A stretch of DNA of 64,000 bases, from the NCBI GenBank assembly GCA_963722385.1, contig CAVRKK010000002.1:128001-192000 (forward strand), in the 5' to 3' direction. Every line of letters starts with the position of its first letter. Position 1 is the first letter of the stretch. Positions 34,233-52,236 of the stretch are shown piece after piece. Made by a program: the position numbers and the translations under genes. Below the pieces are notes generated by a model. That model was not told where the DNA came from. It saw only the letters and a program-made list of their open reading frames with translations, and did no database searches. Origin of the DNA: an uncultured bacterium. GTDB taxonomy: Bacteria; Babelota; Babeliae; Babelales; Babelaceae.

Positions 34233-36185
34233 TCAGAGGAGCTTTTTAAGTTCAAACCATTCATCGCGCAACTTAATGGCTGTTTCAAATTGAAAGCTCT
34301 CCGCCGCCTTATCCATTTGTCGCTCAAGCTCGGCAAGGCGATTAAGTAAGTCAGCTTGATCAGCAATCACTTTCTTAGGCCGTCCCTTGCGTGCCGCTTC
34401 CGCGATCGCTTTTTGGAGCGATGAGATGCTCTTGGTCACTTCGCGTTTAACGCCCAATGGCTGGATATCATGCTGCACATTATAAGCTTGCTGGAGGGAC
34501 CGGCGGCGGTCAGTCTCATCAATAGCTTCCTGCATTGAGCCGGTGATCTTGTCGGCATAAAGAACCACTTTAGATTCGGTATTACGCGCAGCACGCCCAA
34601 TAATCTGAATAAGCGACCGCTTATCCCGCAAAAAGCTCTCCACATCTGCGTCCATAATGGCAACAAGCGCTACCTCAGGCAAATCAATGCCCTCTCTCAG
34701 CAAGTTAACCCCCACCAAGCAGTCAAAAACACCAAGGCGTAGCTTATGTAAAAGCTCAGTACGTTCCGGTGTTTTGATATCATGGTGCATATAGCAAACT
34801 TTGATCTGTTGCTCCTGCAGGTACCGGGCAAGCTCTTCGGCAAGCTTTTTGGTTAAGACCATAACTAACGAGCGCGACCCTTTCTCTTTTGTCTCATTTA
34901 TAGATTCGATCAAGTGGGTCATTTGACCTTGGCGCGCATGCACTTCAATGGCTGGATCAACAATGCCTGTTGGTCGGATAATCTGCTCAACAATCGTATC
35001 GCTTTTTTCAAGCTCGTAACGGCTTGGCGTTGCTGATACAAAAATAACATCGTTAAAGTATTGCTCAATTTCACCAAAACGCAATGGCCTGTTATCGCGC
35101 GCTGATGGCAACCTAAAGCCAAAATCGATGAGCGTCTGCTTGCGAGCGGCATCGCCAGCATACATCCCCTTAAGCTGCGGCAACGCAATATGCGATTCGT
35201 CGATCACCACCAAGAAATCATCAAAGAAATCCAGCAAGCAATAAGGTTGCTCTCCTGTTGTGCGCCCGTCAAAGTGGATAGAATAATTTTCAATACCGGG
35301 ACACATGCCCAATTCATAGAGCAATTCGATGTCATGGCGAACGCGTGTTTGAATGCGCTCCTGATAAAGCGGATTGGCAAGCTGCGGCCACCATGTTTCA
35401 AGCTCGGCTTCAATACTATTTATAGCAGTTCGACGAGCATCCGGGGTTATAACAAAGTGGCGCGCCGGAAATACAAGCGCATTGTCCAACTCGGATAAGA
35501 CGGTGTTATCATGCCTGCTTACCCAAACAAGCTTCTCAATCACCGAGCCCGATAGCTCAATGCGCAGCTTCTCTTTTTGGTAAGGGAGGATAACTTCGAT
35601 CGTTGAGCCAAATACCTGAAAGGTCCCGGGTGCTTTTTCAATGTCATTACGAGCATATTGAATCAATATAAGCTGGCGTATAATATCAGCACGGCTCATC
35701 GTGTCGCCCACCTTAATCGAAAGCGCCAAATTGCGATAGTCGACCGGGCTGCCTAATGAATATATACACGATACTGACGCAACCACAATGGTATCTGGCC
35801 TGTTAATAAGGGAAGCCGTCGCTTCGATACGCAAGCGTTCAAGCTCACTATTAATTTTAGTTTCTTTAGCAACGTAAATATCTTGAGCGGGCAAGTATGA
35901 CTCGGGTTGATAATAATCGTAATAGCTAACAAAATAACAAACTTTATTTTCAGGAAAAAAGAGCGAAAATTCCTCGTATAACTGAGCTGCAAGCGTCTTG
36001 TTAGGCGAAAGAACAAGAACGGGTTTCGTCTGTTGCGCTATAACCTGCGCAACGGTGTACGTCTTACCAGACCCCGTCACCCCCAAAAGCGTCGAAATCC
36101 CCGGCCGCGCCGCTAAAAGCTTATCAATTGCTTGGCCCTGGTCGCCAGCAGGAGGAAATGGGGCATGTAGCTTAAAAAGTGCCAT
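34233..36185 (-). CDS. uvrB: Excinuclease ABC subunit B
   Basis: GVTGSGKT, NKTLAAQLY, FVSYYDYYQPE, DESH, GFRLPSA.DNRPL, C-terminal UVR domain. Confidence 0.97.
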   Translation of the reverse strand: MALFKLHAPFPPAGDQGQAIDKLLAARPGISTLLGVTGSGKTYTVAQVIAQQTKPVLVLSPNKTLAAQLYEEFSLFFPENKVCYFVSYYDYYQPESYLPAQDIYVAKETKINSELERLRIEATASLINRPDTIVVASVSCIYSLGSPVDYRNLALSIKVGDTMSRADIIRQLILIQYARNDIEKAPGTFQVFGSTIEVILPYQKEKLRIELSGSVIEKLVWVSRHDNTVLSELDNALVFPARHFVITPDARRTAINSIEAELETWWPQLANPLYQERIQTRVRHDIELLYELGMCPGIENYSIHFDGRTTGEQPYCLLDFFDDFLVVIDESHIALPQLKGMYAGDAARKQTLIDFGFRLPSARDNRPLRFGEIEQYFNDVIFVSATPSRYELEKSDTIVEQIIRPTGIVDPAIEVHARQGQMTHLIESINETKEKGSRSLVMVLTKKLAEELARYLQEQQIKVCYMHHDIKTPERTELLHKLRLGVFDCLVGVNLLREGIDLPEVALVAIMDADVESFLRDKRSLIQIIGRAARNTESKVVLYADKITGSMQEAIDETDRRRSLQQAYNVQHDIQPLGVKREVTKSISSLQKAIAEAARKGRPKKVIADQADLLNRLAELERQMDKAAESFQFETAIKLRDEWFELKKLL

Positions 36186-36369
36186 AATCACCACTCTGTT
36201 TTATTTCAGTTATATTTTTCAGTTATATATTTAGAAAATGTTTAATTTATTATAGCACAAGCAAAAAAATTAGCCACCCAATAAGAACTCCAAGCCGGTG
36301 CGCTTTTTTCGCATAACAACTTTAAGTACATGCTCGCCCGAGTTATTTCTTTGTCTATTTTGCATTTTT

Positions 36370-36405
36370 GTTGGCAAATTTTAAATTTTAGCTATAATAA
36401 GAATA
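36370..36405 (+). promoter_or_regulatory. Sigma70-like promoter, copy 1 of a duplicated element
   Basis: TTGGCA-N16-TATAAT; 34/36 identical to 46411-46446. Confidence 0.7.
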
Positions 36406-36468
36406 GATTTGATTCATCTATGTTATTGGATTTAAAGCTCACCGTTATTAGATAGGGAGATATACCTA

Positions 36469-37959
36469 ATGAGACACCCACGAGGCTTTGCTTTCTTAAG
36501 CTTAGTGCTTAGCTTCTTCTGCGTAGCACTTTCTGCCAATCAAGAATTTATTCGATTTGACGAGCATGGCCACTATGCCGGCCTCTCCGACTACGCTAAA
36601 AATCTTATCGCTCAATCACGAGATACGTTACGACGACGCAAAGAAGTATTCAGCAAAAAATTCAAGCAATTTGATGCTATTTATCATGCAGCCCATGTCA
36701 ATCGCCTCGCCCGCGGAAATATGTTTCTTTTTGGGCCACCGGGCGGTGCAAAATCAGCATTCTCAAGCTGGCTTTTTAGTCATGAGCTTGAGCCTGCCTT
36801 CAAGCTTCAGATGCACCAGATGATGACCGAGCAGGCTTTTGTGGGCGGCCAGAATATGAATAAGGCACGCGAAGGCCTTTTTGAAATCAACACACAGGGA
36901 AGCCTTGTTGATTTTAAGGTTGCCTTAGTTGATGAGCTTGATAAAGGTAATCCAGCAGCTTTGGCTGCGTTATTGAGCTTGCTCAACGAGCGCGAAGTAC
37001 TTATCGGTAATAAGGCCGTCAAGGCAAAGCTTGAGACGCTTCTTTCGACGAGTAATGCCAACCGCTACGAGATTTTTGAGCAATTTGCCGAAAACGGCAT
37101 GCGCTCAACGGCAGCTGCCTTACTAAATAGGTTTACCACCTCGGCCTTTGTTCCTAATTGGCTTGCCAAAGCTGACCAAGCAGCCATCGACCAGGAATAC
37201 CTCGCTTCATTTGATACAGTTTTTAATCGCGCCGATGGCGAAACTACGGTTGCCGATGAAAAGTTAACGCTTGATTGGGAAGCCCTCCGCAAATTAGCAT
37301 ATTACCTTTTGCGTCCTAACGAGGAATTTTTCAGCGTTTCACGCGAGTTTGTCGACGCCCTCCGTGCAAAAACTATCGAGGCAGTCCAGGAGAAGGTCTA
37401 TGAAACCTCAGAAGATACTCTGCCCTACTTCCCGACAGCTGAATTTACCGAGCGCCTCAGGCAACGAATACATGAAATAATCATTATGTCAGTGTTTCTT
37501 GATTTCTTGACCTCGCGCGTTGCTGATGATATCCCAAGCTTGGAAAATGCGCTCAAGCTCCTTCCTCATCACCGCTTTGAAATAAGTCCGCTTTCTCTCT
37601 GGCGAGCGTACTTAAGCATAACAACCGTAACAGCAGGCAAGGTAGCTCTTCGCTACCCTACAAAAGATGCTGCACAAGATCTCTCGATTGATTTTGGCTC
37701 CGTATTCCGCCAAAAATCAGGCGTTACGGCAAAACCTACCTACAAGGCAAAAGATAAGCGAGAAGAGCAAGAAATCATCTACGCCCTCGAGGAACAAGAT
37801 CGATTCAACCGCCTCTTCGTAACAACCATGAATAACCACAAGCAAGTGCTTGAGGATTCCGCCTCTTTTGGGGGCATGTTCTCTTGTCTGCTTGGCGACT
37901 GCGTTATTAACAAAAACTTACAAGATGTAGAACGACTTCTGATGGCGTTTGGCTCATAA
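36469..37959 (+). CDS. RavA/MoxR-type AAA+ ATPase with N-terminal signal-like peptide
   Basis: FLFGPPGGAKS Walker A (RavA-type GPPGxAKS), ALVDELDK Walker B, LLSLLNER, ALLNRF; N-terminus MRHPRGFAFLSLVLSFFCVALSA. Confidence 0.85.
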   Translation: MRHPRGFAFLSLVLSFFCVALSANQEFIRFDEHGHYAGLSDYAKNLIAQSRDTLRRRKEVFSKKFKQFDAIYHAAHVNRLARGNMFLFGPPGGAKSAFSSWLFSHELEPAFKLQMHQMMTEQAFVGGQNMNKAREGLFEINTQGSLVDFKVALVDELDKGNPAALAALLSLLNEREVLIGNKAVKAKLETLLSTSNANRYEIFEQFAENGMRSTAAALLNRFTTSAFVPNWLAKADQAAIDQEYLASFDTVFNRADGETTVADEKLTLDWEALRKLAYYLLRPNEEFFSVSREFVDALRAKTIEAVQEKVYETSEDTLPYFPTAEFTERLRQRIHEIIIMSVFLDFLTSRVADDIPSLENALKLLPHHRFEISPLSLWRAYLSITTVTAGKVALRYPTKDAAQDLSIDFGSVFRQKSGVTAKPTYKAKDKREEQEIIYALEEQDRFNRLFVTTMNNHKQVLEDSASFGGMFSCLLGDCVINKNLQDVERLLMAFGS

Positions 37960-37983
37960 CACGCGCAAAACGTTAAATAAGCA

Positions 37984-38020
37984 AAAACGCCTGCCGTATT
38001 AATTAAGCGGCAGGCGTTTT
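37984..38020 (+). terminator. Intrinsic terminator after the MoxR-type gene
   Basis: aaaacgcctgccg / cggcaggcgtttt. Confidence 0.7.
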
Positions 38021-38150
38021 GTTGCTCCCGAGGCCTCTTCGTTCTTTTGCTGCCCCTTGATTTTGCTTGTCTATTATTAAATTTCAGATATAATAGTTTA
38101 TGTATATTATTTTATTGAGCTCCTTATTGAAGATGTAATGAAAGAGTTCC

Positions 38151-41100
38151 ATGAAACTGATGCCCTTTCTCTTACTCCTTTTCTGCTTTAACTGCCTGGC
38201 ACCCGACATTGCTCCATTACCTGAGCAATGCTCTGATTACCAAAGCTTCGTTGAGCGCTTTAGCGCACTCAGCGCGTATTATGAAAAAGCTTTGGGGGTG
38301 TACAAAAATCCTTTTTTGTTCACCTTTACGACTGAAGAGGCAAACGCCATCTATAATTCTCTCCTTAGGCGCCCTAACGGCTTTTTCTGCGAGGAATCAT
38401 CGCTCTTTGCAATTCAAGAAGAAATCAAAACATCTAAAAATTATCGTATTGCCGACCTGAATAAATTACTTCTTGAAAAAATTATCGAGGATTCGCGGGA
38501 CGTTTTGGCGCGTAACGAAGCTTCTTTGCATGAACGCCAATCTCTTTTGATTGCCGTAAAAACGGCGCTTGAGTACTTAAGCCGATTCTATGAGTGTTAT
38601 GCCGAGCAGGTGTCTGATACGCAACAAAGCAAGAAGCAAGAAAGCGAGCAGGATGAGCCTGACTTCGATGAACCATCAAACGAATATACGCCATACACCA
38701 AAGATCTTTCGAAGCTTGAAAAGAAAAACACCAAGAAAATTGTTGCAGAGGTCCCTTTCAAGACCCCCGTCTTTGGTAACGTTATTTATTCCTTCATCGC
38801 GAGAAATCGCCCCTTGCAAACAAGCGCATTGCTCGATGAGAACATGCTGTTGCCAGCGGCAGTTACTGGTGAATATACCACGATGCTCGTGCGGACGTGT
38901 CCGAGCAAACAGTTTCAACTTTTACTACCTGCAGGATACGTACCGGCTCAAGGACAACTTGACGGCGCTATTATAAAACCTGATGGCAAAGGCTCTTATC
39001 GTGTGCAGCTTGAGCGCGATATTGAGCAATTTACCGTCCCGTTAAAAAAGCGCATAGGCGATTTGTCTGACTTTCAAAAAGAGCTGTATACAAGGCCGGT
39101 TGGCTTTGCTCTTGAGGAGTGGCCCGATGATATTCAGGCTAACATCATCCATAAGTTTAGCCCCGCAGAGCATAGCGCTGCAGAAATTGCCCAGGCAATT
39201 GTTAAGCATTTTGGCGAGCATTATACCTATAGCATGAAAGCGCAGCCTGAAACCGACCCGATCGACGCCCTTAAGGCGCGGTCATTTCAATGTGATATGG
39301 CTGCTTACAGCATGGCAAGCTTGCTGCGCGATGTTTTTGCTATTCCTGCCCGCATCGTGGCTGGCTATAGCGCTCAGAGAAAAACCAATAAAAGCTTACT
39401 CGTTTTGCCGAACACCGGCCATGCTTGGGTTGAAGTGTTTCACGATGGTGAATGGCATACCTATGACCCAACGCCACCAGGCGGCCCCGATGATGCTGAA
39501 GAAACGGAAGCCTCGGATGACAACCAGAGCCGCACCCAAGAGCAAAGCGCGGTACGAGAGTGGCAACCTGCGACAAATATAACTGAGCATACGCAAGATA
39601 ACCAAAAGCCAGATGACCAACCTCAGACAACTGACGACGAATTTATTTTTCCTGAATTGGCTAAAGTGCTTGAAGGGATCGACTTTTCTACCTTCACGGA
39701 CATGAACGTTTTAAGAAAGCATATTTTAAAAACCCTGCTCAGAGAACTCCTCAATCCACTGTTCAATTCAGAAGAAAGCTCCCACAAACTTAACTTATTT
39801 AAAAGCCTTTTAACCAAATTTACGCCAAAAGACGATCTGGTCTTTCAAGCACTATTGCTTCATAAAGAGCCACACGACCGGCTCCTTAATTGGCTTAAAG
39901 ATATCGAGATGAGGCTGTTTGCACGTGATATCAATCTTACCTATCAGGATCTTGCAAGAATTAGCCGTATTTTAAGCACGTATCAAAAAGTAGCTGAGAA
40001 TGACGTGCCCAGCGCTCTTATCGATCAGATTGTTCACAAGCTCCAGATGGCGCTCAGCGAGCTCTTGCCGCTCAAGGATGCCGATGCATGGGCAATGGCT
40101 TTAGCAGAGGACTTTAAGAAACAATCACCTGCCTTGCTCTGGAAAATGTTGCAGCGGGACTACAGCTTGACGGCGGTCGGTCCTAATCCTGAAACGATCG
40201 CCTTTGCGCATGACGTTGAAGATGGTAAGCACAATGACAAGAGGCTTATTAATGAACTTTATGACTATACCAACTTTATTCTTAACGCCGACACGCGCAA
40301 GGGCAGTACAGAAGTAAAAACGTGGCTCCGCGACCAGCGCAAACCTGGGCTTGATGTTTTGCCGCTACAAAGAATCGATGACTGGCGACGCGGCATCTTT
40401 ACCCGCCATGACCTCGACCCGTTTGAGAACATTGCAGGTGGCTATGCGTACTTGCTGGCCAAGCGAAAGAAAGTTACCTTGCCTACCGAAAAAAACAAGC
40501 AAGAGACTGAGCGGATAACGATCGTCGGCTTTGATACATCAGGTAGCATGTCAGGTAATAATGCTGAATTTCAGGCAGGGCTTATTGCTGCTTTTGTTTG
40601 CCGAGCACTCAATGACGTGTCACCTTCAGGTCGCCAGCGCCACCGCGTATTATTGGTACCTTTTGATGATACGGTAAAGTCGCCTATCAAAGTGTCAACC
40701 ACGCAGGACGCGCTGAATCTTATTAGGGACCACCGAGAGCTCTTGGCCAATACGGGAGGAGGCACTGATATCCAAGCGTTCCTCTTGCAGGCCATCAAGC
40801 TGATCGCGGATGCACAGGATCAAAAGAATCCATTTGACATCGCCAATATCATCCTTATGACAGATGGGCAATCGCCGCTCGATTATGAAGAGCTCAAGCG
40901 CGCTCGCCAGTCGATACATCGAAGCACCCCTCTTCAAACTATGTTTATTGCTATAGGCGACACCAATCCCGAGCTTATCAAGTTTGCGACTGAATCGCAA
41001 AAATTAGGGGCACAAGAAGGCTCATACAAAGAATTTTTGGGCCATGAAATTGATACGATTCTTAACCGAACACATAAAGTAGATCGTGGCGCCTATAACG

Positions 41101-41489
41101 ATTACTTTTATAGCTCAAAATCCGCTGAGCAGATCCCTTTTAAAACGCGCGAATATATTCACGGTGCGCATCAAATGGCAAGCACGCTGGCTCTCTACCT
41201 CCAGCAAGAATCAGCTCACGGCACCAACTATCGTGAGTTCATAGAGCCGCTTAAAATACCCCATGCAAAAGAGCTCTATTCAAAAAGAAGCCTAGAGAAC
41301 TGGATCCACGAAGTGCGACAAATGCTCGCCTACCATAAGGGTTTTCACGATGAGCGCATATTGAGCCTTGTTTTGTATAGCTTGATGCAAAACTTTGAAA
41401 AGCTGGCTGGCCTAAAGTTTTCTGACTTAAACCATTACGAAACCGAGCAATTAATACATCTGCTGGAAACTCCACTTGCTGAGGCTTAG
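38151..41489 (+). CDS. Transglutaminase-like (Cys-His-Asp) domain + vWA domain fusion protein with signal-like peptide
   Basis: FQCDMAA, PARIVAGY, GHAWVEV, YDPTP; vWA MIDAS GFDTSGSM, GGGTD, ILMTDG. Confidence 0.85.
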   Translation: MKLMPFLLLLFCFNCLAPDIAPLPEQCSDYQSFVERFSALSAYYEKALGVYKNPFLFTFTTEEANAIYNSLLRRPNGFFCEESSLFAIQEEIKTSKNYRIADLNKLLLEKIIEDSRDVLARNEASLHERQSLLIAVKTALEYLSRFYECYAEQVSDTQQSKKQESEQDEPDFDEPSNEYTPYTKDLSKLEKKNTKKIVAEVPFKTPVFGNVIYSFIARNRPLQTSALLDENMLLPAAVTGEYTTMLVRTCPSKQFQLLLPAGYVPAQGQLDGAIIKPDGKGSYRVQLERDIEQFTVPLKKRIGDLSDFQKELYTRPVGFALEEWPDDIQANIIHKFSPAEHSAAEIAQAIVKHFGEHYTYSMKAQPETDPIDALKARSFQCDMAAYSMASLLRDVFAIPARIVAGYSAQRKTNKSLLVLPNTGHAWVEVFHDGEWHTYDPTPPGGPDDAEETEASDDNQSRTQEQSAVREWQPATNITEHTQDNQKPDDQPQTTDDEFIFPELAKVLEGIDFSTFTDMNVLRKHILKTLLRELLNPLFNSEESSHKLNLFKSLLTKFTPKDDLVFQALLLHKEPHDRLLNWLKDIEMRLFARDINLTYQDLARISRILSTYQKVAENDVPSALIDQIVHKLQMALSELLPLKDADAWAMALAEDFKKQSPALLWKMLQRDYSLTAVGPNPETIAFAHDVEDGKHNDKRLINELYDYTNFILNADTRKGSTEVKTWLRDQRKPGLDVLPLQRIDDWRRGIFTRHDLDPFENIAGGYAYLLAKRKKVTLPTEKNKQETERITIVGFDTSGSMSGNNAEFQAGLIAAFVCRALNDVSPSGRQRHRVLLVPFDDTVKSPIKVSTTQDALNLIRDHRELLANTGGGTDIQAFLLQAIKLIADAQDQKNPFDIANIILMTDGQSPLDYEELKRARQSIHRSTPLQTMFIAIGDTNPELIKFATESQKLGAQEGSYKEFLGHEIDTILNRTHKVDRGAYNDYFYSSKSAEQIPFKTREYIHGAHQMASTLALYLQQESAHGTNYREFIEPLKIPHAKELYSKRSLENWIHEVRQMLAYHKGFHDERILSLVLYSLMQNFEKLAGLKFSDLNHYETEQLIHLLETPLAEA

Positions 41490-41493
41490 TCTC

Positions 41494-43740
41494 ATGAAAG
41501 AAAATAGATTACAGACTTTTTTATGCGTGGGAATCATCGCTTGTTTGGTTGGTATATCGCCCCTTTCTGGTACCGACAATACGCGGCAAGATAATAGGCC
41601 TAGGGCCATGCTCATCGCCTATTTTGATAATCTTATTGCTAAAAATATCATTAATATTGCTGAGCTCAAAAACCTGCATGAGCGTGATCACTTGATTAAT
41701 CCTATAGATGCTGCTCAATCAAGTGCCCATTATGTGCACGCAAAGCAGCTTGACCAGATGCTGAGCCAGGTTAAGAAGCATAAGCAGCTTGATCTAGACA
41801 CCCTTAAAATATGGGTAGTCCAGAAGATTAAAGAACTAGAAAATCAAGCTTCTACACGGGAACACATACATGAAAAAACGACCGCTCTCACGTATCCCTT
41901 AAGTTTTGTTGCACTTCCCGAAGGGACCTATAGAAGCCAACTTGACCAACGTGAATTTATTATTGAGTCTGGTATTGAGATACAAGAAACTCCCGTTACC
42001 CAGTACCAATGGGCAAGCATTATGGGCGATAACCCCGGGCATTTTTCAAGTGGTCTGCAAACACAAGAAATAGTAATCAATGGCAAAAAAACAAAGATGC
42101 AAGCCAACTGGCCGATAGAATCCGTTTCTTATGCTCAGGTGCGAGAATTTATCAATAAGCTTAATGAGCACGATTCAGAATATAGGTACGATCTACCATC
42201 TGTTCAGGAATACGAAGCATTCTTACAAGCAAGCTTGGGCAAAGATTGGCTAAAACAATTACCGCATCTTACTTCTGCGCAAACTACGCATGATGCAAGA
42301 AGTGGCTTTTATGGTGAGCTTAACAAGCAACGTGTCTGGGGAATTATTGGCAACGTTTGGCAATTTACGAGAGATATGGTAATGCTCAACGAAGATACCC
42401 AAGGGTTTCTCGTTTTTGGTGGCTCATACGCTACTAACAGCGCACTTTCTTGTGAGCTGTTAAGGCCGGTACTGAATGGAAAAAATAGTATAGGCAACAT
42501 ACTTGGCTTCAGGCTTGTTCGCTCTAAGAAGTGGGTACCCGAAAAAGAAGCAAAAGTATACGACAACATCGTCTGGGATGAACACGTTATTGAGCAAGAT
42601 CCCCATTGGCATTGGCACCGTAATGGAATATTTGAAGGACCTTTATTCTATGATGACATAATCGAATTCATGCTCAAAAATCGGCAACAATATCCTTTGG
42701 TAACCCGGCGGACCCTTGGGGCTTTAGAACCAGAAAACCATATAAAGCCTAGTCTAACCCGGTTGGTAAATCTTTATGGAATTGGTATACGAGACCTAAC
42801 TCCTCTGAGCTACCTGATTAACCTTGAAGAATTAGTGCTTGGGGAGAATGAGGTATACAATATACGACCTCTTGCTAAACTTGTTCACCTCAAGCTTCTA
42901 GATCTTTCTGAAAATCATATAGAAAATATTGAGCCACTTGCTCATTTAACCAAATTGCTCACCCTTAATCTTGACGACAATAGAATCAAGAATATCGATG
43001 CTCTTAAAGATCTTAGTTCTTTAGAGAACCTAAATCTTGACAATAATAGGATCGACAATATTGAGGCCCTTAAAAATTTAACTCACTTAAAAAGTTTAAC
43101 GCTTAATAAGAATCAGATTAAAAACATTACTCCGCTCCATGACGTTATTCAACTCGAATATTTATCTTTTGCCGATAATCACGTAGCCAATATCGAACCA
43201 CTCAAGGCTTTAACGAATCTCAGAACCCTTTACCTTGCTCGTAATCAAATTCGCGATATTAAGGCACTGGGCAACCTCACGAAACTTAATACACTTTATC
43301 TTAATAGTAACTACCTTCAAAATATTGATATTCTTGAAAAACTAACCAATCTTGAAGGATTGTATCTCCAACATAACGCTTTAACAGAGGTAAAACCGCT
43401 CAAAGGGTTAACAGACCTTTATGAATTATTTCTTGATGACAATGAAATAAAAGATATTGAACCTTTAGCAAATTTGCAGAACCTCGATTCTCTCAGTCTT
43501 TCTCATAATCAGCTTAAGCATGTCACGGGTGTAGATCAAATGACTGATCTCTCAGAGCTCTATCTTGATGGTAATCCTTTAGAAAATCTTACAGGATTTA
43601 ATAATTTAACGAGTGATGCAAGTTTTCAACTCTATCTTGACGAAGAACAAATTGATAAATTTGATGCTCTTGCGTTTTTTAAAAATATTAGCCACGATAT
43701 TAAAGTGATAGGGGTACCTAATGGACCTGAGGACCAATAA
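41494..43740 (+). CDS. Secreted FGE-sulfatase-like + internalin-type LRR protein, paralog 1
   Basis: ETPVTQYQW, PIESVSY, YDLPS..EYE, GNVWQ, FGGSY, GFRLV; about 12 22-aa LRRs. Confidence 0.88.
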   Translation: MKENRLQTFLCVGIIACLVGISPLSGTDNTRQDNRPRAMLIAYFDNLIAKNIINIAELKNLHERDHLINPIDAAQSSAHYVHAKQLDQMLSQVKKHKQLDLDTLKIWVVQKIKELENQASTREHIHEKTTALTYPLSFVALPEGTYRSQLDQREFIIESGIEIQETPVTQYQWASIMGDNPGHFSSGLQTQEIVINGKKTKMQANWPIESVSYAQVREFINKLNEHDSEYRYDLPSVQEYEAFLQASLGKDWLKQLPHLTSAQTTHDARSGFYGELNKQRVWGIIGNVWQFTRDMVMLNEDTQGFLVFGGSYATNSALSCELLRPVLNGKNSIGNILGFRLVRSKKWVPEKEAKVYDNIVWDEHVIEQDPHWHWHRNGIFEGPLFYDDIIEFMLKNRQQYPLVTRRTLGALEPENHIKPSLTRLVNLYGIGIRDLTPLSYLINLEELVLGENEVYNIRPLAKLVHLKLLDLSENHIENIEPLAHLTKLLTLNLDDNRIKNIDALKDLSSLENLNLDNNRIDNIEALKNLTHLKSLTLNKNQIKNITPLHDVIQLEYLSFADNHVANIEPLKALTNLRTLYLARNQIRDIKALGNLTKLNTLYLNSNYLQNIDILEKLTNLEGLYLQHNALTEVKPLKGLTDLYELFLDDNEIKDIEPLANLQNLDSLSLSHNQLKHVTGVDQMTDLSELYLDGNPLENLTGFNNLTSDASFQLYLDEEQIDKFDALAFFKNISHDIKVIGVPNGPEDQ

Positions 43741-45537
43741 AATTTTAGTTTCTATGTCACGCTACCTTGGAAAAGTGCTTTTTATATTCGCTCTTATTTT
43801 CATAAGCTTTAGCGCACGAGCAGAGAGCGTTAATGCAAATAAAGCAACCGATCTTTTAATCGCTTATTTCGATACACTGATTGCTAAAAATATTATGAAT
43901 GCGGACCATCTCAAAAATATTGGTGAGCATCACGACTTAATCAACCCTCTGACTGAAACCGATGCGGCTCAGTCAAGTACTCATCATGTTTACGCTAAAC
44001 AGCTTGACCACATTATTAACCACCTGAAATGCAATGATGTACTTGACCACAAGACATTTAAAGCCTGGGTGGTTTCGAAAATCGAGGAACTCGAAACCCA
44101 CCTATCAACGCGCGAATTAATCCACGAGGAGACTATTAATACCCACTATCCCTTACGCTTTGTTGCTCTTCCTGCAGGCACGTATACCAGCCAACTCGAT
44201 CACAAAGAGTTTATCATAAGCGATGGCATCGAAATTCAAGACAGCCCTGTCACTCAATATCAATGGGCAAGCATTATGGGCAAGAATCATGCCCATTTTT
44301 CTCAGGGCAAAGATTCCTATCAAATAGCACTGAACAGCGAGAGCGTCAAGATACAAGCTGACTACCCCATTGAGTCTGTTTCTTATGCGCAAATACGCGA
44401 ATTTATCAACAAACTCAATGAACAAGACCCTCAATACCTCTATGATTTACTCTCAATTCAGGAATATGAAGCATTCTTACAAGCAAGCTTTGGCAGTGCT
44501 TGGGCTGAATACTTAATCAAAGTCGATAAGAACGAACAGCAACCTCATGCTGTGACCGCGCAATTTTATGAGATGAGTGGCCAACGAGTGCGCGACCTTC
44601 TCGGCAATATCTGGCAATTTACGCAAGACAAAGTACACCTCGGTAACAATATTAATGCATGCGTTGTTTTCGGCTCTTCATACGCGACCAAAAAAGATGC
44701 TTTAGGAACATTGAGAGATATACTGAGGCCGATTATCTATGAAGATAGCATTGGCAAAGACGTTGGATTCAGGCTTATTCGGTATAAAAAAGGTACATCA
44801 CAATGAATAGCAAGAATATATTCAAAAGATGAATTGAACTGGGATAGGCAAGCAGTTGAACAAGATGCAAGTTGGCAGTGGCATCACGACTTCGGCTTCG
44901 CGGGCCTTTGCTTTTACGACGAAGCTTTGCATTTTATGCTGGACAGGAAAAGGTATTATAAACCAGATGTACAACAAACACTCGATTGCTTATATTACAA
45001 GAGTAGACAATTTCGATGCGATAAAACTCATTGCTTCACCGCACTTTCTCTTTACGATAAATACATAACAAACCTCGAGCCACTGGCCTATCTTCAAGAT
45101 CTTTGGTTCCTCGACCTTGAAAGCAATCGTGGCATACGCGATATTCGCCCCTTGAAAAACCTCACGAAGCTTCGCGAACTGTTTCTTGCCTACTCATATG
45201 ATATTGACGACATCAGACCGCTTGCTACTCTTATTAAGCTTGAAAAGCTATCGCTTCAACATAATAAAATAAGCAATATTGAACCGCTTGGTCATTTAAC
45301 AAATCTTAAAGAACTTGATCTTGCTCATAATCAGATCAGCAGTATTGAAAGCCTAGCTTCGCTGAAAGCTTTAAAAATTCTGAAGCTTTCCAGAACCCGC
45401 TCCAAGATATAATGCCCTTAGCCCACCTCACTAATCTTGAAGAGCTCAAGCTTGATCCTGATCAAATAAATCGATTTGACGCCAGATCATTTATCAAAAA
45501 CGTAAACCCTCATATTAAGCTCGTTGAGAGTTGGTGA
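43721..45537 (+). pseudogene. FGE-sulfatase-like + LRR paralog 2, in-frame TGA at 44804-44806 and frameshift near 45387
   Basis: 43721-44806 and 44834-45412 are the same frame; the alternative frame continues QNPLQDIMPLAHLTNLEELKLDPDQINRFDARSFIKNVNP..W* matching paralog C-termini. Confidence 0.85.
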
Positions 45538-45554
45538 TAAGAATTGCCCGAAGC

Positions 45555-46256
45555 TCAAGCTTTTGCCGATGCTAAAAGCTTAATCTCGAGCGTCGTCACT
45601 TTAGGTAGCACCTTGTTCGTCACAGCAATGCCTTTGGAGCCAAATGATGTATCAAAGCTTCCATCAGAATTAAAACGTGCAATAGCAAGAAAATCGTTGC
45701 TAGAACCGGCGATTAAGATTTTGTCATCATGCTGAATAATGACATCATCAGCTAAGCACCACTCATGGTGAGCAGCAAATTTGCCAACCACCATACCGGG
45801 AATTTCGCCATTTTTGAATGATTTATCCGCGGTGCCATCAGCATTATAACGAGCGATTACAAAATAGCGGCTTTTGTAGTTATCGGCTTTTTTAAATGCA
45901 TAACCAACTACAATAATTTTCCCATCTTTTTGCGTAACTTTTTGGCGCACGCGAGGAAGGGTATAACCTGATTCAAAAGCATCAGGCACAACGAAGCCGA
46001 AGTCACTAAATGATCGCGTAATAGGAATAAGGGTATTCCAATGTATAACCGCAAAGGCTTGAGGGCGTGATGTTAAAATTTTCCCATCTTTACCAATTAG
46101 TATTGAACAGGTAAAATTGCTGGTTGCCGAAGCAGAAGCATCTTTCAATGCCAAGCTCGAATCAAGCGCGCTGCCAAAGTTAGAGATAGCAAAATATAAA
46201 AGCACCATTATTAAAGCATAGATGTTAAAATTGTGTTGATCATAATATTGATTCAT
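45555..46256 (-). CDS. Delta-60-type beta-propeller repeat protein, possibly truncated
   Basis: QKDGKIIVVG..FVIARYNADGTADKSF, QHDDKILIAG..IARFNSDGSFDTSFG repeats. Confidence 0.7.
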   Translation of the reverse strand: MNQYYDQHNFNIYALIMVLLYFAISNFGSALDSSLALKDASASATSNFTCSILIGKDGKILTSRPQAFAVIHWNTLIPITRSFSDFGFVVPDAFESGYTLPRVRQKVTQKDGKIIVVGYAFKKADNYKSRYFVIARYNADGTADKSFKNGEIPGMVVGKFAAHHEWCLADDVIIQHDDKILIAGSSNDFLAIARFNSDGSFDTSFGSKGIAVTNKVLPKVTTLEIKLLASAKA

Positions 46257-46410
46257 AATATTCCCTTGCTGGAGTCGACGATGCTAACCAGTTTATACAC
46301 TCAAAGATTTTAATCAACAAGCGGCAAAGGCGTGCCCTGCGACCTCCTCGATCTGAAATTATTCGCTATTTCGAATATTTAATTGCTTTGCCATTATTGC
46401 TTATATTTCC

Positions 46411-46446
46411 GTTGGCAAATTTTCAATTTTTGCTATAATAAGAATA
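46411..46446 (+). promoter_or_regulatory. Sigma70-like promoter, copy 2 of the duplicated element
   Basis: TTGGCA-N16-TATAAT with extended TG; 34/36 identical to 36370-36405. Confidence 0.7.
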
Positions 46447-46535
46447 TATCTTTTACTGTATTAGATTTAAGGCTGGCTCAGCTTAGGAGAGGCCGAGTAC
46501 TGCACCTCGTTTTACCATCCTGATGCAGAGGAGGC

Positions 46536-48503
46536 ATGAGAGATATGCTATCTAGAATCAACGCTTTAAAAGCAATACTTGCGTTATTTATATTGCCAAC
46601 CCTTCTATTAGCACAAGAGCAACCGGACCAAGCTACGAGCCTATTGGTCGCCTATTTCGACAATCTTGTTTCACAAAATATCATCGCCGTAGATCATCTC
46701 AAGCATATCCACGAACATGAAGAATTAACCAACCCCCTCACTGAAGCTGACGCTCTTACCTCAAGCACTCATTACGTTTACTGGAAGCAGCTTGAACAAC
46801 TTATTAACCAGCTCAAGAGCCATCATTGCATTGATAAAAAGAGCATTAAATTATGGGCGGAACACAAAATTGCAGAAGTCGAGAACCAAGCTGCAACCCA
46901 AGAACTGGTACGCGAAAAAACAGCCAATATTTACCAGCCCCTACGCTTTGTTGGCCTTCCTGAAGGCATGTATACGAGCCAGCTTGACCAAGCTGAATTC
47001 GTCATCGAGTCTGGTGTGGAAATACAAGAAACACCTGTCACTCAACACCAATGGGCAACTATTATGAGCGATAACCCCGCGTATTTTTTCTATGGCTTTG
47101 ACTCAGAAGAAATAGAGATCCATGGTAAAAAAATTAAGCTGGTCGCTCATAATCCAGTAGAATCTGTTTCTTATAGTCAAGTACGCCAATTTATCAATAA
47201 GCTTAACGAGCAAGATACTGAGTATACGTATGATTTACCATCGATACAGGAATATGAAGCCTTGCTTCAGATAAGCCTTGGCAACGATTGGCTACATTAC
47301 CTACCAGCATTTACAAGTACGGAGCATACGCAACCGGTAATTGCAAAAGCTTGCGCGCTTGATAACCACCACCGATTAGGAAGTCTTGTTGGCAATGTTT
47401 GGCAATTTACCCGAGATATGGCAAACCTGAGCCATGATACTGAGAGACACCTTGTTTTTGGAGGCTCTTATGCAACGGTACTAGACTCCATAAAAGACAT
47501 AAATAGCTTACTGAGGCCATTATTTTGGAACAGCATAAGCACCGGCGTTGGATTTAGGCTTGCCCGCTATAAAAAGAGCGCGGAGGCAAAAGAAGCAAAA
47601 ACCTACCATGATATCAAATGGGATAAGCAGATTGCTCACCAGGACCCAAGCTGGTATTGGCATACCAACGATATCTTTGAAGGCCCTCTCTGTTATGCTG
47701 AAATGGCATCGTTCATGCTTATTAACAAGCAACATTATCCTGAAGCAACACAACGTACGCTTAATGCTCTCGAGGAAAATGTCGATAATTTTTATAGCGA
47801 AATTCAGGAGCTCCCCGAGATTTTTCTCAGCAAAAAGCAAATAGATGACCTTACGCCCTTGAGAGGGTTGGTTGCTCTTGAAAGACTCTTCCTTGATACC
47901 AACCAAATAAACGATATAAGTGCCCTTAGCAAATTGATTAACCTCAAGGGCCTCGATCTTTCAAGCAATCAAATAGAAAATACCAAGCCGATCGGAAATT
48001 TACCAAGTTTGCAATGGGTCAACCTCGCTCATAATCGTATTCGTCATATTAAAGCCCTTTCTGGGCTGATCAACCTGAAAAAACTCAATCTTTCTCAGAA
48101 TTATATTTCTGATATTAGTTTTCTTGAGAAATTGCCTAATTTGTCACAGCTTTATCTTAATATAAATGCTTTGAAAGATTTGACGCCACTTAAAAATCTA
48201 ACCAACCTAAACGTGCTTTATCTTACTAACAATGATATCGATGATATTAGCCCGCTTAGAAATTTAATTAATCTTAAGGGTCTCGCTCTTTTTGATAATC
48301 AGATTCAGGATATTACTCCTTTAGAAAATATGAAAAATTTGGAGTGGCTTCATTTAAACGGCAATCCCATAGATGATATAGCACCACTTACAGAACTTAC
48401 TAACCTTCGACACATTTATCTTGATAAAAAGCAAATCAAAAAATTTAATGCTCATCATTTTTTTAGAAATATTAACCCAGATATCGACGTGCATGAAGTG
48501 TAG
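46536..48503 (+). CDS. Secreted FGE-sulfatase-like + LRR protein, paralog 3
   Basis: Same architecture and motifs; about 8 LRRs. Confidence 0.88.
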   Translation: MRDMLSRINALKAILALFILPTLLLAQEQPDQATSLLVAYFDNLVSQNIIAVDHLKHIHEHEELTNPLTEADALTSSTHYVYWKQLEQLINQLKSHHCIDKKSIKLWAEHKIAEVENQAATQELVREKTANIYQPLRFVGLPEGMYTSQLDQAEFVIESGVEIQETPVTQHQWATIMSDNPAYFFYGFDSEEIEIHGKKIKLVAHNPVESVSYSQVRQFINKLNEQDTEYTYDLPSIQEYEALLQISLGNDWLHYLPAFTSTEHTQPVIAKACALDNHHRLGSLVGNVWQFTRDMANLSHDTERHLVFGGSYATVLDSIKDINSLLRPLFWNSISTGVGFRLARYKKSAEAKEAKTYHDIKWDKQIAHQDPSWYWHTNDIFEGPLCYAEMASFMLINKQHYPEATQRTLNALEENVDNFYSEIQELPEIFLSKKQIDDLTPLRGLVALERLFLDTNQINDISALSKLINLKGLDLSSNQIENTKPIGNLPSLQWVNLAHNRIRHIKALSGLINLKKLNLSQNYISDISFLEKLPNLSQLYLNINALKDLTPLKNLTNLNVLYLTNNDIDDISPLRNLINLKGLALFDNQIQDITPLENMKNLEWLHLNGNPIDDIAPLTELTNLRHIYLDKKQIKKFNAHHFFRNINPDIDVHEV

Positions 48504-48509
48504 GACGTT

Positions 48510-50756
48510 ATGAATCACCTATCTATTACTGCTAATATCCACCTATTTTTTCACCAGTTTCTAAGAGTAGTGCTCGTTATATTTCTATTTCCGAGCTTTG
48601 CCGTAGGTATACAACGAGAGTCCAATACCACAAACCTCTTGATCGCTTATTTTGATAACCTTGTTTCAAAAAATATCATCGTCGTAGATCATCTCAAGCA
48701 TATCTACGAACATGAAGAATTAGTCAACCCCCTCACGGAAGCTGAGGCTCTTACCTCAAGCACCCATTACGTTTACTGGAAGCAGCTTGAGCAACTGATT
48801 AACCAACTGAAGCGCCATGGCTACCTTGAAAGCAACAGCATTAAAATATGGGCGGAACATAAAATTACGGAGCTCGAAAACCGGGGCTCCCTCAGTGAAC
48901 ATATACATGAAAAGACAGCCAATATTTATTATCCCTTGAGTTTTGCCGCTCTTCCCGAAGGGACCTATAGAAGCCAACTTGATCAAAAAGAATTTGTTAT
49001 TGAACTTGGTGTTGAGATTCAAGAAACGCCGGTGACCCAATATCAATGGGCGAGCGTTATGGGTAACAACCTCGCGCATTTTTCAGATGGGTCGGAATCG
49101 CAAGAAATAGTCATCAAAGGCAATAAAATTAAGATGCGCGCTAACTGGCCAGTGGAATCTATTTCTTATGCTCAGGTGCGCGAATTTATAAATAAGCTTA
49201 ATGAGCATGATGCAGACTATATTTACGATTTACCCTCTCTTCAGGAATATGAAGCATTATTACAAGCAGCCTTGGGTCAAGACTGGCCAAGCCGATTACT
49301 TCAACATACTCCCGCAGAAAATATCCATGACGTAAAATTGGGGCCCTACGGGGAACTTCACCAGCAACGCATTTGGAATATTTTTGGCAACGTTTGGCAA
49401 TTTACCAGAGATAGAGTAATGCTCAATGAAAATACCCAAGGGTTTCTTGTTTTTGGTGGCTCGTATACCACCAAGAGAGATACTGCTTCATTTCATAACG
49501 AATTGATAAGACCGGTCCTGAATGGAGAATATAGCGTAGGTAACACACTGGGATTTAGACTTGTTCGCTACAAAAGGGATACGTCAGAAAAAGAAGCAAA
49601 GGTATATGATGGTATTGTCTGGCACAAACACGCTGATCATCATCAAAACTGGCAATGGCATCGTAATGACGTTTTTGAAGGACCTTTATTTTACAATGAT
49701 ATAATCGAGTTCATACGTGAAAATAGGCAGTATTATTCTGACGCTATTCAGCATACGGTCGATTCTTTATACATTTCTAGCAAACCAAGCTACGTATTTT
49801 TGATATCTCTCCAAAACAAAAAGATACAAAATTTGACGCCTTTAAGTTGTTTTATCAAGCTTAAAGGCCTTGAGCTTGGTCGCAATCAAATACGAGATGT
49901 AAGTCCCCTTAGCACACTCACGAGCCTTAAGGAGCTTAATCTTTCAAATAATGAAATAGAAAATGTTAATCCCATCGGACGTTTATCAAATTTGCAAAAA
50001 CTCTTTCTCAAAGCTAATAAAATTAGAAATATCGGAGCTCTTACGGACCTTAGGCATATTGAGCGCTTGGATCTTACTGACAATGAAATAGAAGATATTC
50101 AAGGCATTGAAAAGTTAACGAATTTACGAGAACTAGTTATTCAGGAGAATAAGCTTAATAACATTGAGCCTTTAAGTAGCTTAATCCATCTTAAATATCT
50201 ATATCTTGATGACAATCAAATTACCACTATTGAACCTCTTGAAAATCTCGCAAGCCTAGAATGGCTTAGCCTTGGGCATAATCCAATTCGCTCTATTAAG
50301 GCGCTTCCATCTTTAAAACTTAGGATGCTCGATCTTCATAATACCTTTCTTAAGGAAATTAATTTTCTTAAAAAATTAACTAATCTTACGAATCTTAACC
50401 TTAATAACAATATGATAGCAGATGTAAAGCCACTCAAAAACCTTACTATGCTTGATAAACCTTCTCTTGGTCGCAACAAAATAAAAGATATTACCCCCCT
50501 TAAAAATTTAACTAATCTTCGGACTCTTTACCTTTCTCATAATCAAATTCGCGATGTTACTGCCTTAGAAAATCTGAAACACCTGGTCGAGCTTTCTTTA
50601 GACGGCAATCCTTTGGAAGATATAACACCACTTAAACAGCTTGCTAATCTTGAAGATATTTATCTTGATAAAGACCAAATCGAAAAATTTAATGCTCATG
50701 AGTTTTTCAAGAATAGCAATCCCGCTCTTGTGGTGCATGAGGTAGAGGAGATATAA
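48510..50756 (+). CDS. Secreted FGE-sulfatase-like + LRR protein, paralog 4
   Basis: Same architecture and motifs; about 12 LRRs. Confidence 0.88.
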   Translation: MNHLSITANIHLFFHQFLRVVLVIFLFPSFAVGIQRESNTTNLLIAYFDNLVSKNIIVVDHLKHIYEHEELVNPLTEAEALTSSTHYVYWKQLEQLINQLKRHGYLESNSIKIWAEHKITELENRGSLSEHIHEKTANIYYPLSFAALPEGTYRSQLDQKEFVIELGVEIQETPVTQYQWASVMGNNLAHFSDGSESQEIVIKGNKIKMRANWPVESISYAQVREFINKLNEHDADYIYDLPSLQEYEALLQAALGQDWPSRLLQHTPAENIHDVKLGPYGELHQQRIWNIFGNVWQFTRDRVMLNENTQGFLVFGGSYTTKRDTASFHNELIRPVLNGEYSVGNTLGFRLVRYKRDTSEKEAKVYDGIVWHKHADHHQNWQWHRNDVFEGPLFYNDIIEFIRENRQYYSDAIQHTVDSLYISSKPSYVFLISLQNKKIQNLTPLSCFIKLKGLELGRNQIRDVSPLSTLTSLKELNLSNNEIENVNPIGRLSNLQKLFLKANKIRNIGALTDLRHIERLDLTDNEIEDIQGIEKLTNLRELVIQENKLNNIEPLSSLIHLKYLYLDDNQITTIEPLENLASLEWLSLGHNPIRSIKALPSLKLRMLDLHNTFLKEINFLKKLTNLTNLNLNNNMIADVKPLKNLTMLDKPSLGRNKIKDITPLKNLTNLRTLYLSHNQIRDVTALENLKHLVELSLDGNPLEDITPLKQLANLEDIYLDKDQIEKFNAHEFFKNSNPALVVHEVEEI

Positions 50757-50760
50757 GCAT

Positions 50761-50952
50761 ATGCTCAATAATTACTTATATTTTTCGATACTTTTTAACT
50801 GGCGCGCTGGCGATAGCAATTTTCCAATCAGCTATACTACAGCTCAAGCAGGCAACACAAGCAGAATATGCAGCAACTGATCTTTTGCTCGCCTATTTAA
50901 CGTAGAGCATCTTAAACGTCTGTATGAGCATGATAAATTAACGAACCCCTAG
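50761..50952 (+). pseudogene. Remnant of a fifth FGE-LRR paralog (N-terminus only)
   Basis: Fragments AATDLLLAY and NVEHLKRLYEHDKLTNP match paralog N-termini (ATDLLIAYF, VDHLKHIYEHEELVNP). Confidence 0.75.
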
Positions 50953-51117: not shown

Positions 51118-52236
51118 ATGAAGTATATTTGGCAAAATAAACGCTGGCCACATTTCGAATACGATATTACCGGCATACAAGATATACTCTATTGCTATGC
51201 TATTACGACGGGTTCTTTGACAGCTAGTATGAGCCACCTGCCTAATCACTTAAAGATCGATGCAACCATCGATTTACTGGTATCAGAGGCTATGAAAACA
51301 TCAGAGATTGAGGGAGAAAACCTTGACCAAGAAGATGTGCGGTCATCTCTAAGAAACCAGTTAGGCCTTACAAATAATACTCTGCTTATTAAAGATCCCC
51401 GAGCAATAGGCATAGCTCAACTCATGATTGCTGTTAGAAAAAACTATGATCGGTTGCTTACTAAGGAAGAATTATTTTCATGGCACGCTATGGTGCTACC
51501 TAAGCCTTTGAGTGGAGGCATGGAAGTAGGTCATTGGCGGACGGGTAATGATCCCATGCAGATAGTCTCTGGCACTATTGGCCGAGAAACAATTCATTAT
51601 GAAGCTCCTCCAAGTTCAAGGCTTGATAATGAAATGGAACAATTCATCGCTTGGTTTAATGCAACAGACCCACATAAAAGTAACCTAAATATGCCAGGCC
51701 CCGTAAGGGCTGCTATTGCCCACCTTTATTTTGAATGTATACATCCATTTGTCGATGGCAACGGACGGGTAGGCCGAGCTCTTGCAGAAAAAGCTCTATC
51801 CCAAGAGCTACAACGGCCTGTTTTGTTTAGTCTTTCTACCACCATACAGAAATATAAAAAAGAGTATTATCAGCAGCTATCTATTGCCAGCAAAGACGAC
51901 ATGAATATTACTGGGTGGGTCGAGTACTTTGTAAAAACTATTTATTCTGCCCTTCTAGATTCTCAAGAACAGATTGTTATGGTAGTCCAAAAAGCTCAAT
52001 TTTGGAATCACTACGCATCAAAATTAAATGATCGCCAATCAAAAGTAGTAGCTCGAATGTTTAAAGAAGGGACAGCTGGTTTTAAAGGTGGTATAAATGC
52101 CCATAAATACATGGCGATAGCGCACTGTTCGAAAGCTACCGCAACAAGGGATCTTGCTGAATTGGTAGCTTATGGGTGCTTAGAAAGATTACAAAGTGGC
52201 GGTAGAAGCACAAGCTATAAAATTAAGCTCCCGTAA
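51118..52236 (+). CDS. Fic family protein (DUF4172-type N-terminus, C-terminal wHTH)
   Basis: YIWQ...WP.F, TSEIEGE, HPFVDGNGRVGR, SKATATRDL..GGRSTSY. Confidence 0.92.
   Translation: MKYIWQNKRWPHFEYDITGIQDILYCYAITTGSLTASMSHLPNHLKIDATIDLLVSEAMKTSEIEGENLDQEDVRSSLRNQLGLTNNTLLIKDPRAIGIAQLMIAVRKNYDRLLTKEELFSWHAMVLPKPLSGGMEVGHWRTGNDPMQIVSGTIGRETIHYEAPPSSRLDNEMEQFIAWFNATDPHKSNLNMPGPVRAAIAHLYFECIHPFVDGNGRVGRALAEKALSQELQRPVLFSLSTTIQKYKKEYYQQLSIASKDDMNITGWVEYFVKTIYSALLDSQEQIVMVVQKAQFWNHYASKLNDRQSKVVARMFKEGTAGFKGGINAHKYMAIAHCSKATATRDLAELVAYGCLERLQSGGRSTSYKIKLP

Follow-up and report, generated by a model that had tools for sequence, protein, structure and literature searches.

A conserved gene system of a MoxR-class ATPase, a transglutaminase-vWA protein and receptors with exchangeable modules, all with predicted export signals, in a Babelaceae genome and related loci

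MoxR-class ATPases, a clade of AAA+ proteins marked by a distinctive helix 2 insert in the core, work with partners that carry a vWA domain, and in the known pairs a peptide is captured on the metal ion-dependent adhesion site (MIDAS) of that domain and remodelled with ATP, as the main text of Kaur et al. 2020 (PMC7159879) has it. Two described themes are built on such pairs. The first is that of the ternary systems, which the same main text describes as a MoxR protein, a vWA protein with an N-terminal peptidase domain (rarely a transglutaminase-like one) and a variable third component, with FGS (FGE/C-lectin) and beta-propeller modules as the variable parts (PMC7159879). The second is the widespread MoxR-vWA-YebA/TgpA operon, proposed to be a membrane-proximal degradation system, where, in the passages that Zhang and Aravind 2012 devote to it, the vWA protein recruits, MoxR unwinds and the transglutaminase-like (TGL) domain cleaves (PMC3495828). 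Here we analyse a locus in a stretch of 64,000 nucleotides ('the window'; contig CAVRKK010000002.1, positions 128,001 to 192,000) of an uncultured bacterium of the Babelaceae. Its co-oriented open reading frames (ORFs), flanked by uvrB (34233-36194, minus strand) on one side and by a Fic/DUF4172 gene (51118-52236) on the other, encode a MoxR-class ATPase, a protein in which a transglutaminase-like (TGase) and a vWA domain are fused, and a set of receptor-like paralogs. An initial annotation of this DNA knew of no described system with such an architecture, nor did our own search of full-text literature turn up an account of a MoxR that is exported and has a TGase-vWA partner; the two themes are relatives all the same, and it is more apt to regard the system as their exported variant than to treat it as one without relatives.

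The ATPase, a protein of 496 aa (36469..37959, plus strand), has bpMoxR (PF20030) as its best Pfam match (1.9e-16, 60.2 bits, cut-off 27), next to AAA_5 (9.3e-12, 45.6 bits, cut-off 22). It has the Walker A, Walker B, sensor-1 and arginine-finger elements of the MoxR-clade AAA+ core, and across 39 homologs Walker A (G89-S96, with the P-loop GPPGGAKS), D155/E156 of Walker B, N196 and R221 are all invariant. A search of the ESM Atlas with this protein returned generic AAA_5/MoxR clusters only. The gene is co-oriented with the rest of the locus, just as first annotated, whereas its designation as 'RavA-type' holds for the AAA core alone: the RavA equivalog model NF010054 gives 37.6 bits against a cut-off of 681, and what it matches are residues 80-196. 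The RavA-ViaA couple of E. coli does share with the present locus the pairing of a MoxR-class AAA+ ATPase with a vWA partner, but it is cytoplasmic and has neither a transglutaminase nor a receptor array.

The second gene (38151..41489, plus strand) encodes 1112 aa, in which Pfam recognises Transglut_core (1.3e-12, residues 339-440) and VWA (3.3e-07, residues 794-949). The intact Cys-His-Asp triad and the vWA MIDAS that were first noticed here are borne out by the protein's relatives, as C381, H424 and D439 are present with Cys, His and Asp invariant in 25 homologs, and the MIDAS residues D795/S797/S799/T872/D905 (DxSxS plus Thr and Asp) are each conserved in at least 90% of the same 25. Both domains stand on one polypeptide with a single N-terminal hydrophobic stretch. 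The structure model (predicted local distance difference test, pLDDT, 79.8; predicted template modelling score, pTM, 0.43) places an N-terminal helical domain, a beta-sandwich and the TGase core before a disordered acidic linker of ~70 residues, and a helical domain, the vWA domain with its MIDAS and a C-terminal helical domain after it. The closest solved structure is the periplasmic domain of P. aeruginosa TgpA (6g4h, 3.6e-09; 6g49, 6.7e-09), to which it is the beta-sandwich and TGase core that correspond best, followed by generic vWA domains that include BatA-like and NorD entries. The TgpA operon resembles the locus in gene content as well, since in both a MoxR, a vWA substrate binder and a Cys-His-Asp transglutaminase-like domain are linked. 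TgpA/YebA, however, is a multi-pass membrane protein, accompanied by a separate DUF58/vWA gene and by a MoxR without signal peptide, whereas here TGase and vWA are fused in a protein predicted to be soluble and exported, the ATPase is predicted to be exported too, and a receptor array is added.

This array was first described as four full-length paralogs, joining an FGE-sulfatase-like domain to leucine-rich repeats (LRRs), plus a remnant. Three of the four, all on the plus strand, are intact: FL1 (41476..43740), FL3 (46536..48503, 655 aa) and FL4 (48510..50756, 748 aa). FL2 (43721..45543, plus strand) is a pseudogene, interrupted in frame by TGA at 44804-44806 and frameshifted near 45400, and its C-terminal tail can be read at 45352-45543 in another frame; recoding of TGA as the cause of the split is ruled out, TGA being the codon that ends uvrB, sodA, tadA, lolD and potA in this genome. 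The remnant did stand: at about 50790..50952 (plus strand) a fifth paralog is left with a signal-like segment and the beginning of its N-terminal domain, and this sequence is disrupted by stops and by either a deletion or a frameshift. FL1, FL3 and FL4 each match FGE-sulfatase (PF03781) with 35-37 bits (cut-off 23.3) as well as many LRR families, and the FL1 model (pLDDT 86.1, pTM 0.73) consists of a signal helix, a four-helix N-terminal domain (hereafter NTD; 41-136), a C-lectin/FGE fold (about 143-352), a linker and an LRR solenoid (425-720). The solenoid superposes on InlA and on a Roco LRR (expectation value E about 1e-24, 35-38% identity), and with internalins such as InlA it has the LRR fold alone in common, the best of the class 1 internalin NCBIfam models reaching 200.7 bits against a cut-off of 1600.

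The FGE-like domain of the paralogs appears to be a binding fold and not an enzyme, because all four copies lack a cysteine pair in the stretch from the GGS to the GFRL motif, and because its sole match by sequence in the PDB is TvpA (2y3c), a non-enzymatic variable protein of a diversity-generating retroelement (DGR). The catalytic cysteine pair of FGE is one that we take to be placed near the C-terminus of the fold. Unlike TvpA, the receptors have no reverse transcriptase nearby: the single RVT_1 match of the genome is a 141-aa frame on the other contig (no search for template repeats was made), and with no linked reverse transcriptase DGR diversification is rejected for this genome. The paralogs are mosaic, as the NTD is closest between FL3 and FL4 (72%) and the FGE domain between FL1 and FL4 (71%), which suggests recombination or gene conversion between the copies. 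A solitary sixth member of the family, with 440 aa, the NTD and an FGE fold without LRR, lies elsewhere in the source genome (L041:6108-7430, minus strand, which is G000:C2:719107-720429), next to SPFH/NfeD genes and an ankyrin gene.

The initial annotation had named the co-occurrence of the three gene types in other genomes beforehand as one of the tests of its proposal, and this co-occurrence is what we find. Scanning species-representative genomes with a TGase-vWA profile gave 33 loci from public metagenome-assembled genomes (MAGs), 31 of which encode a true TGase-vWA relative. Wherever at least 1.6 kb of room is available, the ATPase gene lies directly 5' of the TGase-vWA gene (24/24 loci), 21 of these cases having been found by script and three (L021, L036 and L038) added from the gene maps; the two genes overlap by 70 nt in L021, and in L036 and L038 a short ORF that resembles a split TGase-vWA N-terminus stands between them. 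On the 3' side follow 1-7 tandem genes for putatively secreted proteins of 400-550 aa, and a gene with the NTD is found in 22 of the 26 loci with at least 1.3 kb downstream, directly downstream of the TGase-vWA gene in 19, often in tandem (five copies in L016 and five in L029). Among 41 relatives of the source genome only G001, of the same genus, and G008, of the same family, have an ortholog of the ATPase, two other matches being weak (E 1.7e-4 and 9.6e-4), and in both genomes the TGase-vWA gene adjoins it and LRR genes are nearby. Variations on the layout include two tandem ATPase paralogs before the TGase-vWA gene (L030:6620-9662), with seven tandem, putatively secreted paralogs without Pfam match after it, and, in an RCC1-type locus, a 629-aa protein resembling ABC1 atypical kinases, with a hydrophobic N-terminus, after two receptor genes (L014:16057-17946, plus strand).

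The common denominator of the third component is the NTD, a new domain, and not the FGE or LRR module. Iterating a profile that was seeded with residues 1-170 of the paralogs in the window led to a domain of ~115 residues (FL1 44-152), which is present in 53 proteins of the loci and the window, and against 1.84 billion representative proteins the profile retrieved 575 at E <=1e-3 and 456 at 1e-10, with the domain starting nearly always at about residue 30-60. No Pfam family matches more than three of 48 members, and all such matches are below cut-off; homology of the NTD to the other two parts was rejected, the hhalign probability being 0.1 with the TGase-vWA alignment and 3.3 with that of the ATPase. 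What lies behind the NTD is exchanged from locus to locus: FGE-sulfatase in 10 loci, PQQ-like/ACSF4 propellers in L012, L026, L031 and L036, RCC1 repeats in L014, L019, L021, L027 and L033, and LRRs with an FGE-homologous region in the window, L008, L010 and L024, the window copies being the only LRR-type receptors in which Pfam scores FGE-sulfatase. The best 125 of the 575 NTD representatives include 96 with FGE, 8 with RCC1 and 7 with LRR. The FGE-LRR receptor of the first description is thus right for the window, but the LRR fusion is a minority form and the constant part is the NTD. The type of receptor also tracks the TGase-vWA tree (23 proteins, quick search, midpoint-rooted), where an LRR clade and an RCC1 clade each have 100% support in the Shimodaira-Hasegawa-like approximate likelihood ratio test (SH-aLRT). 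In one receptor (L013:14963-16399) the NTD occurs twice, the additional copy being C-terminal.

Export of all three families by Sec-type signal peptides is well supported by their N-termini, though not proven. The ATPase, TGase-vWA and FGE-LRR ORFs of the window all start in a signal-peptide-like manner, that of the ATPase being MRHPRGFAFLSLVLSFFCVALSA, and in the ATPase family this feature is kept; conservation of the predicted signal peptides in all three families, the lack of which the initial annotation had named as a refuting outcome, is seen both by eye and by heuristic. By eye, nearly all the full-length proteins among 48 TGase-vWA and 64 ATPase homologs have K/R, a hydrophobic run and small residues, and the exceptions are mostly truncated entries. 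A strict home-made heuristic, which looks for an uncharged window of 11 residues with mean hydropathy >=2.0, starting within the first 40 residues and with K/R before it, flagged 38/45 TGase-vWA proteins, 47/60 ATPases and 85/124 NTD proteins, compared to 0/3 of the nearest non-family MoxRs and 1/11 housekeeping proteins of the window, whilst a looser version flagged the non-family MoxRs too. In addition, Walker A lies at about residues 65-145 in the ATPase family and at 42-48 in the nearest other MoxRs.

These N-termini bear directly on a reading in which nothing of the kind is exported, the hydrophobic stretches being membrane anchors or the result of mis-called starts, with the ATPase on the cytoplasmic face of the membrane. 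All characterised bacterial MoxR proteins are, to our knowledge, cytoplasmic, and it is in the cytoplasm only that ATP is known to be plentiful, which speaks for such a reading. However, K/R, the N-terminal stretch and small-residue sites recur in most of ~230 homologs from three unrelated families, the nearest non-family MoxRs lack the stretch and have their Walker A correspondingly early, and the TGase part resembles a periplasmic domain, and we consider it very improbable that the proteins stay inside.

In many loci all three component types share a short motif just past the signal peptide, Cys-x-x-L/F-L and often C-[AES]-[ED]-L-L (loci L012, L016, L029, L030 and L037; proteins P0010-P0017 and P0067-P0071), and an identical NNKCAELLS occurs in one ATPase and one TGase-vWA protein for which one and the same longest contig is listed. 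Counted with a loose regular expression, the motif occurs in 24/48 TGase-vWA, 25/64 ATPase and 32/51 downstream proteins, some matches within the hydrophobic core being included in these counts. In the window (38151-38240) the Cys of the motif is kept by the TGase-vWA protein only (EQCSDY). The motif could be a signal for sorting, for disulfide formation or for MIDAS ligation.

Taken together with the known themes, these features suggest an exported variant of the MoxR-vWA-transglutaminase module, with exchangeable receptors that share a docking domain and with prey or host cells as its targets; we give this interpretation an even chance. The same three activities are present (with TGase and vWA fused), all of them with predicted export signals, and receptors are added to them. 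In such a system the receptors would dock to the core by their constant NTD of ~115 aa and would bind their targets by the variable C-terminal module, which in the window would be the FGE/C-lectin fold with the internalin-like LRRs and elsewhere FGE alone, a PQQ-like or WD40 propeller, or RCC1. The TGase-vWA protein would hold a peptide of the receptor or the target on its MIDAS site, the Cys-His-Asp centre would cut or cross-link the peptide so held, acting either as a peptidase or as a cross-linker, and the ring of the MoxR ATPase would spend ATP on remodelling or releasing the complex. Physical assembly of the three parts is likewise conjectural: complex predictions of the FL1 NTD (40-142) with the two halves of the TGase-vWA protein (20-445 and 515-960) gave scores of 0.00 and 0.00, which count neither way.

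The place where this chemistry would be exerted could also be the producer's own surface. The TGase might covalently fix the NTD-bearing binders to the envelope in a sortase-like way, with MoxR and vWA as chaperones and the array as a set of adhesins or sensors, an explanation that we find doubtful but rank first among the alternatives. TgpA, the best structural match, acts in its producer's own envelope, in the periplasm; the constant NTD of all receptors could be the handle for attachment, and internalin-like LRRs are typical of surface adhesins. A precedent may be seen in the Esr pathway of the Actinomycetales, which, according to passages of a 2026 preprint (PMC13622651), unites in one cluster MoxR, vWA, a variable exported binder (the surface beta-propeller protein EsrA) and a transglutaminase, EsrD, that retains EsrA. 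As portrayed there, the Esr pathway differs in that it serves signalling in monoderms and includes kinases and FHA proteins, its parts belong to other families, and nowhere do those passages state that its MoxR is exported (PMC13622651). Envelope anchoring is further weakened by the NTD itself, in which an NP motif alone is nearly invariant and no conserved Gln or Lys stands out, and it leaves the ATP source of an exported ATPase unexplained in genomes without translocases.

A relation to the ternary systems raises the possibility of an immune function, in which a periplasmic counterpart of these systems would detect phages, epibionts or predators at the envelope by its variable binders and respond by proteolysis. 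The grammar is the same as that of the systems treated in the main text of Kaur et al. 2020 (PMC7159879): MoxR, a vWA-peptidase and a variable third gene are linked, as they are here, and tandem diversified copies occur in both. Moreover, bpMoxR, the family that the ATPase of the window matches best, was built from those systems, and a patchy distribution with tandem paralogs would befit an immune locus. Against this, none of the three parts matches a PADLOC model, the holders are predators or parasites and not typical prey, and the traits of the beta-propeller subsystem from which PF20030 derives are absent: its vWA domain strictly precedes a propeller of about four blades, whereas here Pfam finds no propeller after the vWA domain and residues 961-1103 are helical in the model, and its P-loop is often GxxxTAKS in place of GPPGGAKS. 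The system differs from the ternary ones also in that all its three parts carry predicted signal peptides (neither 'signal peptide' nor 'secreted' occurs once in the main text of PMC7159879, its architecture tables apart), in that the third component is defined by a new NTD without consistent Pfam match, in the lack of a linked DGR, and in being held by predatory or parasitic lineages instead of multicellular bacteria. A role as an extracytoplasmic immune sensor therefore seems unlikely to us. The MoxR-vWA pair p618/p892 of the Acidianus two-tailed virus, named in the same main text (PMC7159879), is likewise tied to an extracellular process, but the resemblance is conceptual only, as this is an archaeal virus and its pair comes without signal peptides, transglutaminase or receptor paralogs.

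The lineages that hold the system are informative about where an exported variant might act. Nearly all related loci lie in MAGs labelled Bdellovibrionia, Bacteriovoracia, Oligoflexia, 'Myxococc*' or unclassified. The source genome (G000) has 1.6 Mb, three to four tandem genes for TLC-type ATP/ADP translocases (G000:C2:903079-907247), two secretin genes, and ankyrin-repeat and Fic proteins near the locus; TLC translocases, secretins, ankyrin-repeat and Fic proteins in a small genome are traits associated with obligate intracellular energy parasites. The sequencing runs that contain the organism are DNA from soil and peat metagenomes, and no RNA run is listed among them. Strong TLC genes (E <1e-100) are found in five of 10 other holder genomes (G261, G264, G266, G269 and G270), with both the RCC1-type clade and the other LRR-type lineage among them, compared to 0/14 well-known control genomes and 1/401 genomes of a Bdellovibrionota sample; the enrichment is a lead only, since the five holders are not independent and were chosen through the system itself. 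All holders found being either MAGs labelled as predatory Bdellovibrionota or small-genome lineages with TLC translocases, the machine would act on or in another cell, or in a periplasm fed with ATP from outside. The secreted three-component architecture that was first proposed stands as a conserved system because co-occurrence and signal peptides hold across loci; its action inside a eukaryotic host, proposed at the same time, we can only infer, since most family members are in MAGs labelled Bdellovibrionota, where the likely partner is bacterial prey.

AAA+ motors are ordinarily intracellular, as is their ATP. It is conceivable, though we hold it to have clearly less than an even chance, that the ATPases described here are the first AAA+ (MoxR) family to be itself exported by Sec and run on the ATP of a host or prey, or on ATP that crosses the periplasm of an energy parasite, and that, together with the TGase-vWA protein, they form a programmable complex for cutting or cross-linking proteins, with a range set by swapping receptors that share one new docking domain.

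The local arrangement of the genes departs from that of a single operon. The two best matches of a sigma-70-like scan in the region are P1 (36364..36408, plus strand), 5' of the ATPase gene, and P3 (46405..46449, plus strand), 5' of FL3; they are 89% identical over 45 nt and both read TTGGCA-16-TATAAT (at 36371-36398 in P1), matching the consensus in 11/12 positions, so that the duplicated promoter reported initially is recovered. A third and weaker copy (38060..38104, plus strand; TTGTCT-16-TATAAT, 10/12 consensus, 64% identical to P1) precedes the TGase-vWA gene, and between this gene and that of the ATPase there is a terminator-like hairpin followed by a U-run (37980..38026, plus strand), with -27.9 kcal/mol and z -6.38, as well as which none of 200 shuffles fold. 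The promoter-like elements and the hairpin therefore point to three local transcription units. As for the tight spacing attributed to the array, FL4 does start 6 nt past the FL3 stop, and the likely true start of FL1, an ATG at 41494, lies 5 nt past that of the TGase-vWA gene, but the hairpin separates the ATPase gene and the array is broken by a minus-strand gene (45555..46256) for a delta-60/DUF5122 beta-propeller-repeat protein of 233 aa with a hydrophobic N-terminus. This protein is not matched by the NTD profile and its gene is probably outside the system.

Several neighbours deserve mention. Just 3' of the array, the DUF4172-Fic protein (51118-52236, plus strand) matches the PADLOC model SoFic with 6.8e-44 and stays below the cut-off of the SoFic model of NCBIfam, and a Fic gene is also found 5' of the system in locus L010. 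A few kb 5' of the locus are two ankyrin-repeat proteins (27033-27572, minus strand, and 29340-30731, plus strand), whose matches to Legionella Ank effector models are far below the cut-offs.

A number of observations weigh against an exported, prey- or host-directed machine. The strict heuristic misses 7/45 TGase-vWA proteins, 13/60 ATPases and 39/124 NTD proteins, and it is non-specific in these secretion-rich genomes, because 79/175 other ORFs of the loci are flagged as well. Four loci with sufficient room (L009, L030, L037 and L038) have no detectable NTD gene; three of them have other tandem, putatively secreted paralogs in its place (without Pfam match in L030, with a weak propeller in L037 and with WD40 in L038), and L009 has none. 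In the window, the hairpin sets the ATPase gene apart from the rest and two members of the array, FL2 and the fifth-copy remnant, are damaged, which together mean that the local copy may in part be decaying. The system is also rare even among relatives and patchy in both phyla, with the TGase-vWA gene in 3/261 genomes of the source phylum (G000, G001 and G008) and the ATPase family in 8/401 genomes from a sample of the phylum to which a holder labelled Bdellovibrionaceae belongs; since the scans scored at most three candidates per genome, these counts may be low. Transfer between lineages is likely, and no donor or direction is claimed because the tree is a quick, midpoint-rooted one. Finally, we know of no canonical ATP source in the periplasm or outside the cell. 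Five of the 10 other holder genomes are without a strong TLC gene, one of them having a weak match only, and none of the eight positives of the Bdellovibrionota sample is among that sample's TLC holders, and an ATP/ADP translocase is accordingly rejected as the general answer to the question of ATP supply.

In conclusion, the results of this work define a new family of domains of ~115 aa, with 575 representative proteins, and tie the poorly understood MoxR-vWA-transglutaminase module to variable partners. The existence of a conserved AAA+ family that combines invariant ATPase motifs with conserved, predicted export signals challenges the assumption that such motors work where ATP is made. The holders are uncultured predators and energy parasites with small genomes, and little is known of how they recognise and handle their prey or host; for them the receptor array is a candidate recognition system and, if our interpretation is correct, it would belong to a protein-cutting or cross-linking complex with a range of targets set by the receptor subunits that share one docking domain.

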